In this document: positions 8,425 to 32,057 of the stretch, piece by piece | Layout of the letters: each line of letters opens with the position of its first letter | How positions within the stretch are numbered: the first letter of the stretch is position 1 | DNA from: Patescibacteria group bacterium | GTDB lineage: Bacteria; Patescibacteriota; Patescibacteriia; Patescibacteriales; UBA12465 | Length of the DNA stretch: 64,000 bases | Direction of reading: 5' to 3' | NCBI GenBank assembly: GCA_050949525.1 | Contig: JBMNFW010000001.1 | Location: forward strand, 143,890-207,889 | Notes under the pieces: model-generated | Databases searched by the model: none | Told to the model about the DNA's origin: nothing | What the model saw: the letters and a program-made list of their open reading frames with translations, nothing else | Position numbers and translations under genes: made by a program

Positions 8425-8449
8425 TTAGAATAATTTACTTCATTTAAAA

Positions 8450-8478
8450 GTGGGGGCTTTTAAGGTCCCCGCTTTTTT
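8450..8478 (+). terminator. rho-independent terminator after hppA
   Basis: GTGGGGGC (8450-8457) pairs with GGTCCCCGC-type arm (8465-8472), including G.U pairs. Followed by a T6 run. Confidence 0.7.
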
Positions 8479-8486
8479 GTTATAAT
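8478..8486 (+). promoter_or_regulatory. extended -10 element (TGtTATAAT) upstream of tig
   Basis: TG at 8478-8479 and TATAAT at 8481-8486, 34 nt before the tig ATG. Confidence 0.4.
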
Positions 8487-8519
8487 AATTAAATCTAATA
8501 ATTAATAATTTTAAAAATT

Positions 8520-9806
8520 ATGAAAGTTGATCGTAAAGATTTAGAAAAATCGTTGATTGAGTTATCAGTGGAAGTGAGTTTAGAGGAATTAGAGCCTTAT
8601 ATAATCAAGGGGGCTGAAAGTTTATCTAAAGAGGTTAAGATTGAGGGTTTTCGTCCCGGAAAAGTACCACTAGAAATTCTTAAACAAAAAATAGGGGAAA
8701 TGCCAATTCTAGAAGAAGCAGCTCGACTTATAATCAATAAACAGATTGATGATGTCATTTTATCCAATACTAAAGATAAACAAATTGTGGGGCGACCAGA
8801 AGTTAATATTACTAAATTAGCTCCCGGTAATCCTTTAGAGTATAAAATTACATTAATTAGTTTACCAGAAATTAAATTGGGAGAGTATAAGGATTTAGGT
8901 TTTAAAAAGGAGGATGTTAGTGCTAGCTCTGAGGATATTAATAAATTAATGAATAATTTGTTAGAAATGAGAGCAGTAGAAAAAATATCTGATCAAGTTA
9001 TTAAAGATGGTGATAAAGTTTTAGTTTCTATTAATTTGTTTTTAGATAAAGTTCCAGTTGAAGATGGTCAAAGCTCTGAAACTACAGTTATAATTGGTAA
9101 GAATTATTTAATTGATGGTTTTGATAAAAATCTTTTAGGATTAAAAAAGGGTGAAGAAAAAAGCTTTTCTTTGGTTTATCCTAAGGATCATTACAAAAAA
9201 AATTTAGCTGGAAAAAAGGTAGAGTTTAAAGTTAAGATTAAGGAAGTTTATGATCGACAAGTACCCGAAGCTAGTGATGAAATAGCTCAGGCTTTTCGGT
9301 TTAAAAATTTAAAAGATTTAGAAGATAACTTAAAGACCAGTATTGAAAGTCAAAAAAAGAGAGATTTTGAAATAAAGCTGGAGTCACAAATTATTGATAA
9401 AATTATTGATAAAACTAAGTTTGGTGAAATTCCTGAGGAGTTAATTAAGAATGAATCTGAAATAATGTTAAGGGAAATAGAACAAAGTGTTTTATCTCAG
9501 GGGGGAAAATTTGAAGATTATTTAAATAGTATAAAAAAGAATCAAGAGCAGTTAAGGTTGGATATTTTACCTCAAGCTGTTCAAAGAGTTAAAGGAGCTT
9601 TAGTTTTACGTGAGATAGCCAAGTTAGAAAAGATTAAAGTTGAGGATAAGGAGATTGAAGTTGAATTAGATAAGGCTCGAGAGAGTTCTAAAGGTAATGC
9701 GGAGGCTTTAAAAAGCATTAATAGTCCAGCTTATCGTTCTTATTTAAATAATTTTTTAATAAATCAAAAAACAGTTGATCAATTAAAAGACTGGAATTTA
9801 TCTTAA
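8520..9806 (+). CDS. tig: trigger factor
   Basis: 428 aa. N-terminal ribosome-binding signature IEGFRPGKVP, a central FKBP-like region and a C-terminal helical arm. Confidence 0.92.
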   Translation: MKVDRKDLEKSLIELSVEVSLEELEPYIIKGAESLSKEVKIEGFRPGKVPLEILKQKIGEMPILEEAARLIINKQIDDVILSNTKDKQIVGRPEVNITKLAPGNPLEYKITLISLPEIKLGEYKDLGFKKEDVSASSEDINKLMNNLLEMRAVEKISDQVIKDGDKVLVSINLFLDKVPVEDGQSSETTVIIGKNYLIDGFDKNLLGLKKGEEKSFSLVYPKDHYKKNLAGKKVEFKVKIKEVYDRQVPEASDEIAQAFRFKNLKDLEDNLKTSIESQKKRDFEIKLESQIIDKIIDKTKFGEIPEELIKNESEIMLREIEQSVLSQGGKFEDYLNSIKKNQEQLRLDILPQAVQRVKGALVLREIAKLEKIKVEDKEIEVELDKARESSKGNAEALKSINSPAYRSYLNNFLINQKTVDQLKDWNLS

Positions 9807-9815
9807 AATTTTAGT

Positions 9816-10316
9816 ATGGATTTTGATTTTCTTAATATTGAAATATTGCCCGATATACCATTATTTGTGGTGGTTTTTATTGTTTTTGGTATTTTGCTTT
9901 ATTTTCTTTATTATCGTAATCCTAAGGTTATTCGACGGGATTTGGAAAGAAGGTTAGATCAAGGGGGTTATGATAAGGATGGTTATGATCGTTTCGGCTA
10001 TAATCGACAGGGTTTTAATCGAGCTGGTTTTAATGAGAATGGGTTCTCGATTCGAAATTATCGCGCTCAAGATTATGTCAATGGTTTTGATCCTCAGGGT
10101 TATGATGTTTTTGGTTATAATCGTTTTGGTTATAATGAACAAGGTTTTAATCGCCAAGGTTTAGATCGCGAGGGTTATAATTTTGATGGTTATGATGCTG
10201 ATGGTTATAATCGTGCTGGATATAATCGGGATGGTTTTAATCGAGCTGGTTATGATAAATATGGTTATGATAAAGATGGTTATGATCGGCAGGGAAAGGA
10301 TATTTCAGAAATATGA
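9816..10316 (+). CDS. membrane-tethered G-[YF]-[DN]-x-x pentapeptide-repeat protein (no recognised family)
   Basis: 166 aa. One TM helix (IPLFVVVFIVFGILLYFLYY) followed by basic residues, then GYDKDGYDRFGYNRQGFNRAGFNENGF...GYNRAGYNRDGFNRAGYDKYGYDKDGYDRQG. The stop overlaps the smpB start (ATGA). Confidence 0.75.
   Translation: MDFDFLNIEILPDIPLFVVVFIVFGILLYFLYYRNPKVIRRDLERRLDQGGYDKDGYDRFGYNRQGFNRAGFNENGFSIRNYRAQDYVNGFDPQGYDVFGYNRFGYNEQGFNRQGLDREGYNFDGYDADGYNRAGYNRDGFNRAGYDKYGYDKDGYDRQGKDISEI
9963..10295 (+). repeat. about 22 tandem 15-nt units (GGTTATGAT/GGTTATAAT/GGTTTTAAT + 6 nt) encoding the pentapeptide repeat
   Basis: Read directly: ggt tat gat aag gat / ggt tat gat cgt ttc / ggc tat aat cga cag / ggt ttt aat cga gct ... 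The repeat is in frame with the CDS. Confidence 0.85.
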
Positions 10317-10783
10317 AAATATTAGCTATTAATAAAAGGGCTAGTTTTGATTATGAGATTTTAGAAACTTATGAAGCTGGTTTAGTTTTAAGTGGATCGG
10401 AGGTTAAGTCTATTCGACAAGGTCAAGCCAGCCTTAAAGGTTCTTATGTTAGTTTAAAAGTTAACAGTCAAGGACGAGTTGAAGCTTTTTTACTTCAGGC
10501 TCATATTCTACCGTATAAAGCAGCTGGACTGCAACCTGAATATAATAGTGAGAGGCCTCGTAAGCTTTTATTAAAGAAAAAAGAACTGTCTTATTTAATT
10601 GGTAAAAAAGAAGAAAAAGGCTTGACAGTTATTCCGATTAAGTTATATACTAAGAGAAGTTTTATTAAGTTAGAAATTGCCTTGGTTCGAGGAAAGAAGC
10701 TTTTTGATAAGCGGGAAGATTTGAAGAAAAAAGATTTGGATCGGCAATTAAGAACTTTAACAAAAGAAAAACTACGAACTTAA
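10313..10783 (+). CDS. smpB: SsrA-binding protein SmpB
   Basis: 156 aa. KRASFDYEILETYEAGLVLSGSEVKSIR... is canonical SmpB. It is followed immediately by tmRNA. Confidence 0.95.
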   Translation: MKILAINKRASFDYEILETYEAGLVLSGSEVKSIRQGQASLKGSYVSLKVNSQGRVEAFLLQAHILPYKAAGLQPEYNSERPRKLLLKKKELSYLIGKKEEKGLTVIPIKLYTKRSFIKLEIALVRGKKLFDKREDLKKKDLDRQLRTLTKEKLRT

Positions 10784-11167
10784 GGGGATGATTTTTGGGT
10801 TCGATAATAAGAGTTTTTTAAATATTCAAAATGTGTTGAATAATCACAAAAAAATATTCAAAAAATAAGTGTAAAAAATACATTTAAGAAAGCTGCTTTC
10901 TCTTGGAAAGTTCCAGCTTTCGCTCCTGTTGTTGCTTAATAATAGCTTCAACCATCGGCCTGGTGAGGTCTCTATAGCCAGTTCCCGGTGTCAATTATAG
11001 AGATAGATTTTAAGGGTGTTGTCCCTTTAAAATTGAAAGATTAGACAGCTCGTTATTATCTCATTTAGCTTAATTTTAGAGATAATAATTAAATATTTAA
11101 TTAAGCTATTTTTGTAAATGTATTTAAAAAAGCTTGTTAGACACGGGTTCAATTCCCGTCATCTCCA
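10784..11167 (+). ncRNA. ssrA: tmRNA (SsrA), one-piece
   Basis: The 5' GGGGAUG pairs with the 3' CAUCUCC, including the G3.U alanine identity pair. T-arm CGGGTTCAATTCCCG; discriminator A at 11167; CCA not encoded. The internal tag frame is most likely 10892-10936 (AAFSWKVPAFAPVVA), closed by TAA TAA TAG at 10937-10945. It starts 1 nt after the smpB stop. Confidence 0.9.
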
Positions 11168-11182
11168 CAAAATAAAAAATAA

Positions 11183-11266
11183 GCCGCGGTGGCGGAATTG
11201 GTAGACGCGCTGGACTTAAAATCCAGTGATAGCAATATCTTGGGAGTTCGATTCTCCCCCGCGGCA
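11183..11266 (+). tRNA. tRNA-Leu (anticodon UAA)
   Basis: Acceptor GCCGCGG/CCGCGGC, anticodon loop CTTAAAA, long variable arm, T-loop TTCGATT, discriminator A. CCA not encoded. Confidence 0.93.
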
Positions 11267-11277
11267 CTTATTTTTTT

Positions 11278-11349
11278 GCGGGTATGGTATAGTGGCTATT
11301 ATGTAACCTTGCCAAGGTTGAGACACGAGTTCGATTCTCGTTACCCGCT
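11278..11349 (+). tRNA. tRNA-Gly (anticodon GCC)
   Basis: Acceptor GCGGGTA/TACCCGC, anticodon stem-loop TAACC-TTGCCAA-GGTTG, T-loop TTCGATT. CCA not encoded. Confidence 0.93.
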
Positions 11350-11379
11350 CATTTTATTTAATAATAAGATTTATTAAAA

Positions 11380-11943
11380 ATGAGACGAAGATCTAAATTT
11401 TCTAAAAATAATAAAAAAGATTCTAATAAGGATTTTAGAGCTAATGAGAAAATAAAATCTCCTGAGGTTCTTTTAGTTGATGAAAATGGTGAAAGTCAGG
11501 GAGTAATGAAGACCGAAGAGGCTTTGAGTTTAGCACGAGAAGCTGATTTGGATTTGGTTGAGGTTAATCCTCGAGCTAATCCTCCGGTGGTTAAGATTTT
11601 AGATTTAGGTCAGTTTAAGTATGAACAAGATAAAAAAATTCATAAGCAAAAAGTTTTACAAAAAAGAATAGAGTTAAAGAATATTAAATTATCTCTTAGG
11701 ATCAGCAAGCATGATTTAGGGATTAGAGAGGAGCAAGCTTTTAAATTTTTATCAAAAGGTAATAAAATTAAGATTGATTTATTGTTAAGAGGAAGGGAGC
11801 GACAACATTTTGATAAAGCTCGAGAAATAATTACTGATTTTATTAATAGCTTGAAGGCTAGGGAAGAATTAAGGATTGAAGAAGAACAACCCTTGACAAA
11901 ACAGCCAGGAGGCTTTACTATAATACTAGTTAATAAAAAGTAA
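11380..11943 (+). CDS. infC: translation initiation factor IF-3
   Basis: 187 aa. The core INEKIKSPEVLLVDENGESQGVMKTEEALSLAREADLDLVEV...VKILDLGQFKYE is canonical IF-3, with a Lys-rich N-terminal extension. ATG start. Confidence 0.93.
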   Translation: MRRRSKFSKNNKKDSNKDFRANEKIKSPEVLLVDENGESQGVMKTEEALSLAREADLDLVEVNPRANPPVVKILDLGQFKYEQDKKIHKQKVLQKRIELKNIKLSLRISKHDLGIREEQAFKFLSKGNKIKIDLLLRGRERQHFDKAREIITDFINSLKAREELRIEEEQPLTKQPGGFTIILVNKK

Positions 11944-27167: not shown

Positions 27168-27189
27168 AAAATCAAAAATGTGAGAAAAT

Positions 27190-27190
<1 letters not shown>
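27168..27190 (+). other. 5' arm of the 23S processing stem
   Basis: AAAATCAAAAATGTGAGAAAATC is complementary to 30188-30210 (22 Watson-Crick pairs plus one G.U). Confidence 0.8.
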
Positions 27191-30187
<2,997 letters not shown>

Positions 30188-30192
<5 letters not shown>

Positions 30193-30210
30193 TCTCACAT
30201 TTTTGGTTTT
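30188..30210 (+). other. 3' arm of the 23S processing stem
   Basis: GATTTTCTCACATTTTTGGTTTT pairs with 27168-27190. Confidence 0.8.
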
Positions 30211-30230
30211 AATAAATATTAGATTATATA

Positions 30231-30348
<118 letters not shown>

Positions 30349-30493: not shown

Positions 30494-32057
<1,564 letters not shown>

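Follow-up and report, generated by a model that had tools for sequence, protein, structure and literature searches.

A membrane-anchored protein of Gly-Tyr/Phe-Asp/Asn pentapeptide repeats encoded between tig and smpB in a patescibacterial genome

The classical pentapeptide repeats (PF00805/PF13599; A(D/N)LXX), which are known from MfpA and Qnr, form a right-handed quadrilateral beta-helix, and the RHS/YD repeats (PF05593), which are ~20 residues long, form a beta-shell. The stretch of DNA analysed here (64,000 nucleotides, hereafter the window; positions 143,890 to 207,889 of contig JBMNFW010000001.1 in the Patescibacteria assembly GCA_050949525.1) contains a gene between tig, which encodes trigger factor, and smpB, whose product consists largely of pentapeptides (pentads) of the form G-[YF]-[DN]-x-x. 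As judged by sequence comparison, the only recognisable relative of the class to which these pentads belong is the decapeptide mid-domain of the Legionella type IVB secretion protein DotG/IcmE, with scores below family thresholds. The published motif of the DotG repeats is [KR]-x-A-G-[FY]-[STND]-x-x-x-[LI], with a period of 10 (bioRxiv 10.1101/2023.03.22.533729). In cryo-electron microscopy (cryo-EM) and cryo-electron tomography (cryo-ET), these repeats were not resolved; they have been proposed to form a periplasmic collar and were termed 'likely-flexible'.

A preliminary description of the window had singled out the repeat gene and had linked it, through its position, to ribosome quality control. 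The explanation that we consider best, and that we hold with about half of our confidence, is that this is an accessory gene of one lineage of the candidate phyla radiation (CPR), and that it encodes a membrane-anchored, non-enzymatic scaffold or spacer of fixed length.

The repeat gene and its orthologs

The repeat protein contains 20 strict pentads, or about 22 when the degenerate units are counted. In the repeat region, G[YF][DN] motifs occur 18 times, compared with an expectation of 1.3 and a maximum of 6 in 10000 shuffles, and the longest in-register run comprises 14 units, compared with a maximum of 3 in the shuffled region. Tandem Repeats Finder reported periods of 15, 30, and 75 nt in the gene. 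The array consists of 24% aromatic, 19% Gly, and 30% charged residues, with a net charge near zero. A single transmembrane (TM) helix at residues 14-33, in which the top 19-residue Kyte-Doolittle window reaches 2.74, precedes the array. The open reading frame (ORF), hydropathy, register, and shuffle counts all agree with the preliminary description, which had read the product as a single-pass membrane protein made up almost entirely of about 22 pentads. Its suggestion of a cytoplasmic C-terminus was based on the basic patch after the helix (residues 34-46, RNPKVIRRDLERR), a reading with which our analysis agrees, and the charge distribution predicts the same topology: in the three full-length orthologs tested, the helix is flanked by 0-1 Lys/Arg residues on its N-terminal side and by 4-5 on its C-terminal side.

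Orthologs were identified by synteny, using a scan of the genome collection with tig, a metagenome scan, and contig look-ups for relatives of SmpB. An initial word-index homology search had missed the true orthologs, and among the matches listed by it, none was longer than ~290 aa. We obtained five distinct orthologs, all located between tig and smpB in related Patescibacteria. The full-length proteins are all exactly 166 aa long, with zero insertions or deletions (indels) at identities down to 63%. The protein from L021, a Logan assembly, is 100% identical to that of the window, and the protein from L022, whose N-terminus is lost at a contig end, is 77% identical to it. L012 and L001 encode the same product, as do L013 and L002. 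L023 is equal to L024 and 98% identical to L001, and L025 and L026 are identical sequences in two assemblies of the same run (ERR1193289). Gene callers picked up the repeat gene in independent assemblies.

The repeat ORF is a genuine gene, and the array is neither a DNA-level nor an assembly artefact. The ratio of nonsynonymous to synonymous substitution rates (dN/dS, Nei-Gojobori method) is 0.09-0.21 for the repeat gene, 0.07-0.18 for its repeat part, and 0.04-0.19 for tig, with dS values above 1, and the repeat part is under tighter constraint than the TM part. The other reading frames of the gene contain 2-32 stops each; because the antisense frames are full of stops (4-20), it is the plus-strand frame that is real. 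Identity among the 15-nt units is only 62%, and the longest exact internal repeat measures 19 nt. The GC content at third codon positions is 0.17, compared with 0.20-0.22 in the flanking genes, and codon usage agrees with that of the host. In the first three orthologs, 11 of the 20 fourth positions and 12 of the 20 fifth positions, the nominally 'variable' ones, are invariant. When six sequences are aligned, the stutter between the two repeat blocks, the central core, and the tail GKD[IV]SE[IL] are invariant or nearly so. The preliminary description had considered that the gene or its frame might be absent from relatives, or that the array might have arisen in assembly; five orthologs keep the frame under purifying selection, and different assemblies yield identical 166-aa products.

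The gene is accessory, dispensable, and patchily distributed in one CPR lineage. It is absent from seven close relatives (L003, L004, L005, L027, L028, L029, and L030) and from the outgroup L007, all of which have an intact tig-smpB pair. In these genomes, the gap from tig to smpB is about 20-30 nt, with a slight overlap in L030, and no trace of the gene was seen there. The comparison indicates that tig next to smpB is the ancestral arrangement. In a neighbour-joining tree based on tig and SmpB, carriers and non-carriers are interleaved. Four of the carrier genomes form a clade (bootstrap 100) that is nested, together with lineages lacking the gene, in a crown group (bootstrap 99). The window takes the basal position, followed by the non-carrier L030 (bootstrap 67); L022 groups with the window in an SmpB-only tree. 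Between the two carrier clades, the repeat protein shows 63-70% identity, compared with 64-70% for tig and SmpB. The simplest history would be that the gene entered between tig and smpB once, long ago, and was then cleanly lost at least two or three times; an old transfer between both carrier clades would be the alternative. As a side observation, the tig-smpB-infC-rpmI-rplT loci of L001, L003, and L005, which are labelled 'uncultured Gammaproteobacteria bacterium' and derive from co-assembly bins, are 64-76% identical to those of Patescibacteria; these records look mislabelled.

Because relatives keep tig and smpB without the repeat gene, trans-translation and trigger factor do not need it. 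The ribosome-quality-control role that had been read from the position of the gene is therefore not supported, given the gene-less relatives and the interleaving of carriers in the tree. The synteny itself was borne out in part, since all carriers have the gene at the same site but it is missing from the eight genomes named above. Translational coupling to smpB had also been proposed; the ATGA overlap is present only in the subclade of the window and L022, whereas in the other four orthologs the stop codon is followed by 5 nt and then the ATG. This case illustrates the weak evidential value of gene position: the gene was inserted within tig-smpB-ssrA and was lost repeatedly.

The pentad class and its relation to DotG/IcmE

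A Pfam-A hmmscan of the 166-aa protein returned zero families at E <= 1, and neither PHROGs nor PADLOC gave a match. The sole NCBIfam hit was a weak one to DotG/IcmE (E 0.015, model NF033900). A phmmer search of 1.84 billion cluster representatives yielded 2463 clusters at E <= 1e-3, 912 at E <= 1e-10, and 153 at E <= 1e-30; the matched proteins include some of up to 4900 aa that align over many separate segments. The consensus, derived from 8704 units of 269 proteins (P0001-P0269), reads G-[Y 57%, F 33%]-[D 54%, N 36%]-[R 39%, K 24%]-[D/E/N/Q], and uninterrupted runs extend up to 91 units. With its in-register runs of 6 and 14 units and its significant phmmer similarity, the window protein is a member of this class. 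The class is common in bacteria and phages, and uncurated. No Pfam or NCBIfam model covers the repeat, in keeping with the failure of the preliminary description to recognise the family, and the search across genomes that it had proposed revealed a widespread repeat. A literature search with exact peptides (e.g. GYDKDGYD and GYDRDGYD) and with motif spellings found no relevant paper.

The array is fused to a variety of partners, including an HNH nuclease, a HelD/UvrD-type helicase, MORN repeats, a PQQ propeller, RING, a zinc-ribbon, DUF4145/HEPN, and VirB10/TrbI (the last in P0162). P0138 combines a signal peptide, a PQQ propeller, and pentads. The commonest short family member, P0012 (L016:6001-6708), has an N-terminal domain of ~120 aa, 20 pentads, and a Cys-containing tail, and matched no PHROG or Pfam family; its gene is flanked by two Peptidase_S74 (tail-fibre chaperone) genes, and the 61-kb contig, from freshwater, apparently belongs to a phage. 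Because the partners are partly extracytoplasmic and partly cytoplasmic, the module is independent of the cell compartment. One architecture, in proteins of about 290 aa, consists of an N-terminal TM helix, 22-24 pentads, and a C-terminal DUF4145/HEPN domain (hereafter TM-repeat-HEPN). A Pfam search of 44 aligned sequences found DUF4145 in 9 and HEPN in 3, and none in the window protein.

Several further observations concern individual members. In the P0123 cluster (P0270-P0278, >=90% identity), the order of parts is signal peptide, outer domain, TM helix, RKRR patch, and array. Full-length members of this cluster range from 1393 to 1553 aa, with length differences in multiples of 20 aa that correspond to the copy number of a four-pentad super-unit, GFDAE-GFDRQ-GFNQE-GFDKA. 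In P0152 and P0266 (about 750 aa), a TM anchor and pentads are combined with a long helical region, which opens with 'NAY[NA]ILGL'. A likeness of this region to a J-domain, noticed by eye, was without Pfam support and was dropped. A kinship between the anchors of the window protein (MDFDFL...) and P0152 (MWFDFF...), also noticed by eye, was rejected because BLAST aligned the repeats only. The tblastn matches in cultured phages (the set represented by L018:2663-3412, L019:2722-3405, and L020:1463-1876) proved to be artefacts from the antisense strand of classical pentapeptide-repeat genes, in which GADLS reads in reverse as GRHRA or GWHRS; the antisense strand of a microvirus gene with SSDVP repeats was another source. 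Such period-5 antisense matches are a trap for homology searches with the pentad family.

Among 177635 PDB sequences, DotG was the only match, with an E-value of 3.9e-5 for the single sequence and 3e-12 for the ortholog profile. The DotG repeat is described in Pfam by PF25296 ('Decapeptide repeat region'), with which the DotG segment, rebuilt from the printed alignment, scores 296.5 bits. Relatives of the window protein score 40.2 (P0122), 25.6 (P0138), 21.9 (P0001), and 21.8 bits (P0235), where the cut-off is 45, and the window protein gave no hit to PF25296 at E <= 1. With the NCBIfam DotG model, the E-values were 9e-27 for P0123 and 2e-38 for P0162 (over model positions 566-1006, and including the VirB10 domain of the protein). 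P0162 is a 600-aa fragment from TARA ocean data that resembles both DotG/IcmE and VirB10/TrbI (Pfam TrbI, E 7e-6), and pentads replace the decapeptides in it.

Fold and possible role of the array

Structure prediction, which the preliminary description had suggested as a way to distinguish a solenoid from disorder, gave a divided answer. In the single-sequence AlphaFold2 model, the mean predicted local distance difference test (pLDDT) score is 59; the TM helix is confident, and the near-perfect C-terminal units score 64-84, but the block means across residues 51-130 are 35-48. When an alignment of 44 TM-repeat proteins was supplied, the mean pLDDT rose to 87 and the array reached 92-98. The alignment-based model has scarcely any regular secondary structure save isolated bridges, for which DSSP spacings of 5, 10, and 15 are all present. 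A Foldseek search of this confident model against the PDB gave 0 hits, and a fold search of BFVD gave nothing useful; both nulls are weak, given a model of repetitive shape that contains just two helices and lacks long strands.

The repeat pattern itself holds some information on structure. Unit likeness in the family set, measured against shuffled units, showed a three-unit (15 aa) periodicity in 164 runs from large proteins (z = 8.9 at lag 3, z = 3.4 at lag 6, and negative at lag 1). This weak periodicity fits a defined structure, and it could represent either a 15-residue structural period or duplication history. The indel-free, position-specific conservation among the orthologs points to a defined structure or a precise length requirement, and we lean towards an array that is structured rather than disordered. 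We consider it unlikely, on present evidence, that the pentads are homologous to the collar repeats of DotG/IcmE and adopt a previously unseen fold, maybe a narrow solenoid in which each turn takes up three pentads (15 residues). If this were true, the 166-aa CPR protein would be its minimal natural form (an anchor and 22 units of fixed length) and ideal for solving the fold, which in turn would explain a module used in type IV secretion systems (T4SSs), in a phage fibre cluster, and in nuclease/helicase conflict proteins.

In the arrangement that we favour, the acidic 13-residue tail would lie outside the cell and be followed by the one TM helix, with the basic segment and the entire array in the cytoplasm. 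The array is built from 7 units, a 4-residue stutter, and 14 units. In other proteins, the module has an anchor or targeting domain on one side and an effector or structural domain on the other, which suggests a non-enzymatic module for defined-length spacing, tethering, or docking; in the window gene, it stands alone on a membrane anchor. The putative scaffold would bind to itself or to a partner, with the near-invariant units at its centre (residues 95-122) as the probable site of contact, and its co-transcription with tig and smpB-ssrA would merely follow from the insertion site and not from a need.

Several points weigh against a structured cytoplasmic scaffold. The predicted topology has a single basis, the positive-inside rule. 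We infer a scaffold function, and reached it by elimination, since no catalytic or binding domain was matched in Pfam, NCBIfam, PHROGs, or PADLOC. Repeated loss means that the protein is non-essential, and its contribution may be small or condition-dependent. The likeness to DotG is a repeat-to-repeat match with E-values inflated by periodicity and composition, and all hits to the curated family model (PF25296) are below threshold; the DotG repeats themselves were termed 'likely-flexible'. The charge-hydropathy value of the array is 0.325, below the boundary of 0.423 and thus on the disordered side, whereas a classical pentapeptide-repeat control gave 0.495, above its boundary of 0.435. The low confidence of the single-sequence model counts in the same direction, and AlphaFold2 yields confident but unrealistic solenoids for repeats (PMC11795689).

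In descending order of weight, the rival explanations are a disordered self-associating domain, an outward fibre, a link to ribosome rescue, and a remnant that has lost its effector. Close to the idea of the preliminary description, the array might be a disordered 'sticker-and-spacer' polyampholyte, with Tyr/Phe and Arg as stickers and Gly/Asp/Asn as spacers, that forms a membrane-bound condensate or gel. Its composition, near-zero net charge, and low hydropathy agree with this, as do the low single-sequence confidence over most of the array, the flexibility ascribed to the DotG repeats, and the tendency of AlphaFold2 to over-predict solenoids. However, disordered regions can usually absorb indels and a varying number of units, whereas the five distinct orthologs have zero indels despite saturated synonymous sites, and the TM-repeat-HEPN class also keeps its array length, typically 22-24 units. 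The 'variable' positions and the stutter are conserved position by position, and constraint is stronger on the repeats than on the TM part, so that a disordered array seems to us somewhat improbable. An outward array, with the helix as signal anchor and a surface fibre built from the repeats (to attach an episymbiont to its host, for instance), would match the extracytoplasmic settings of P0162 (VirB10/DotG-like), P0138, and P0012 and the many class B proteins with signal-peptide-like N-termini. We regard it as quite improbable, since the charge bias across the helix is strong and the acidic N-tail does not resemble a signal-peptide n-region. The repeat is also found in proteins that are plainly cytoplasmic (HelD/UvrD and HNH), and in P0123 it comes after a TM helix and an RKRR patch, like that of the window protein.

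A role in ribosome rescue or co-translational quality control, with the protein tethering trigger factor, SmpB-tmRNA, or stalled ribosomes to the membrane, is suggested by the location between tig and smpB with ssrA immediately next, by the lack of an intervening terminator, by the ATGA overlap common to the window and L022, and by the identical insertion site in all carriers. The chances of such a role appear slim: trans-translation proceeds independently of the gene in the relatives and the outgroup that retain tig-smpB without it, the overlap is missing in 4 of the 6 ortholog sequences, the fusion partners (HEPN, HNH, HelD, VirB10, and the phage tail-fibre cluster) share no such theme, and no known ribosome- or RNA-binding domain was detected with Pfam or NCBIfam. 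The protein might also be a decaying TM-repeat-HEPN/DUF4145 conflict gene minus its effector domain, with no function of its own. The closest architecture is indeed an N-terminal TM helix followed by 22-24 pentads and DUF4145/HEPN, and the gene has been lost repeatedly. Nevertheless, purifying selection is equal to that on tig at dS > 1, the orthologs are of equal length with a conserved tail, and downstream there is no trace of HEPN, as smpB follows at once; decay is accordingly the explanation to which we give the least credence.

As a single gene, the repeat gene is of modest weight, since its product, in one CPR lineage, is a membrane protein that is both small and dispensable. More useful is the repeat class, because it comprises thousands of clusters with no Pfam or NCBIfam model and no matched solved structure, and the fold and role of the DotG mid-domain are still open for the Legionella Dot/Icm machine. 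A short, naturally isolated array of fixed length is a practical structural target and a seed for a family model.

Gene neighbourhood and comparison with known repeats

The features of the locus are listed in Table 1. The order is terminator, tig, repeat gene, smpB, ssrA, tRNA-Leu, tRNA-Gly, infC, rpmI, and rplT; the GC content of the window is 32%, and the nearest records to the locus are metagenome-assembled genomes of Patescibacteria, Falkowbacteria, and Komeilibacteria. With ssrA directly after smpB, the locus is richer in trans-translation genes than the preliminary description had seen; ARAGORN did not report ssrA at these positions. A terminator scan from 8476 to 11400 found no further terminator-like site past the hairpin ahead of tig, and because no terminator separates them, tig, the repeat gene, and smpB are probably transcribed together as one unit. 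In L001 (6288-6309) and L002 (1958-1979), the 22-nt spacer between tig and the repeat gene contains TGTATAAT, which is extended -10-like, and the spacer of the window, which is only 9 nt long, is without this motif. A promoter of its own for the repeat gene was considered but is not claimed here; consensus scans gave promoter-like sites that were no commoner than in shuffled sequence, and the TGTATAAT sites were not listed among them. Elsewhere in the window, the rRNA genes on one strand have the unusual order 23S-5S-16S, where the usual order is 16S-23S-5S.

Table 1. Coordinates in the window of the repeat gene, its parts, the adjacent genes, and the rRNA genes.
Feature	Position	Strand	Evidence or remarks
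Terminator-like hairpin ahead of tig	8446..8476	+	Terminator scan
tig (trigger factor)	8520..9806	+	Pfam Trigger_N, FKBP_C, Trigger_C; upstream neighbour, ends 9 nt before the repeat gene
Repeat-protein gene	9816..10316	+	ATG start, 166 aa plus stop
Acidic N-tail, residues 1-13	9816..9854	+	0 K/R, 4 D/E; predicted outside the cell (positive-inside rule)
Single TM helix, residues 14-33	9855..9914	+	Hydropathy; AlphaFold2 helix at 16-34
Basic juxtamembrane segment, residues 34-50	9915..9965	+	6 K/R; predicted helical and cytoplasmic; YYRNP invariant in orthologs
Repeat block 1, residues 51-85	9966..10070	+	Six strict G[YF][DNS]xx pentads (51-80) and degenerate NYRAQ (81-85)
Stutter DYVN, residues 86-89	10071..10082	+	4 residues, register shift -1; same place in all orthologs
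Repeat block 2, residues 90-159	10083..10292	+	Fourteen pentads in register
Near-invariant core, residues 95-122	10098-10181	+	GYDVFG-NRFG, then QGLDREGYN
C-terminal tail GKDISEI, residues 160-166, and TGA stop	10293..10316	+	Stop overlaps smpB start (ATGA)
smpB	10313..10783	+	Pfam SmpB, E 4e-49; starts within the TGA stop of the repeat gene
ssrA (tmRNA)	10784..11170	+	Rfam RF00023, 111.7 bits; begins at the first base after the smpB stop
23S rRNA gene	27182-30198	+	
5S rRNA gene	30233-30346	+	
16S rRNA gene	30494-32055	+	

The pentads resemble the classical pentapeptide repeats in their 5-residue period, in the D/N position, in having one large hydrophobic residue per unit, and in the frequency of Gly. 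The order of residues is different, namely G-[YF]-[DN]-[RK]-x in the pentads and [STAV]-[DN]-[LF]-[STR]-G in the classical units. The pentads have D/N after the aromatic residue, and the position two before the aromatic residue is D/E/N/Q, in contrast to a small buried residue in the classical repeat. Membership of PF00805/PF13599 was ruled out by the residue order and by the hidden Markov models (no hit at E <= 1), and a Foldseek search with the AlphaFold2 model, whose nulls are weak as noted above, matched no pentapeptide-repeat structure. As a control, the same Pfam library assigns 108 bits for Pentapeptide_4 to the DotG segment. The RHS/YD repeats share tandem Tyr-Asp dipeptides with the array, but they too were rejected, as PF05593 gave no Pfam hit and the period of the window array is 5. 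The distinction from both families that had been drawn in the preliminary description is therefore confirmed. The low-complexity regions of the eukaryotic FET family (e.g. the DR(G)GGYGG units of TAF15) are like the array in their G/Y/D/R alphabet, short tandem units, and near-neutral polyampholyte character, but they are not strictly periodic, whereas the window array has a fixed length and position-specific conservation. We know of no detectable sequence relationship between the FET-family repeats and the pentads.

Within the pentad class, the TM-repeat-HEPN/DUF4145 proteins have the same plan of a TM helix and pentads as the window protein, with 34-42% identity over the aligned length. The window protein differs from them in ending 6 residues past the array, without the C-terminal DUF4145/HEPN domain, and in its acidic N-tail, which is basic in those proteins. 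Compared with DotG/IcmE, the pentads have a period of 5 and not 10, lack a conserved Ala or [LI] position, and combine, in every unit, an aromatic residue with an acid/base pair. The window protein, which is without a VirB10/TrbI domain or a T4SS context and has tig and smpB as neighbours, also differs in the predicted location of its array, which is cytoplasmic and not periplasmic. The two repeats are alike in the G-[FY]-[STND] core and in having a hydrophobic residue at each fifth position (GFSAK-ELKDA in DotG), and DotG and the window protein both have a long tandem array right after an N-terminal TM helix.

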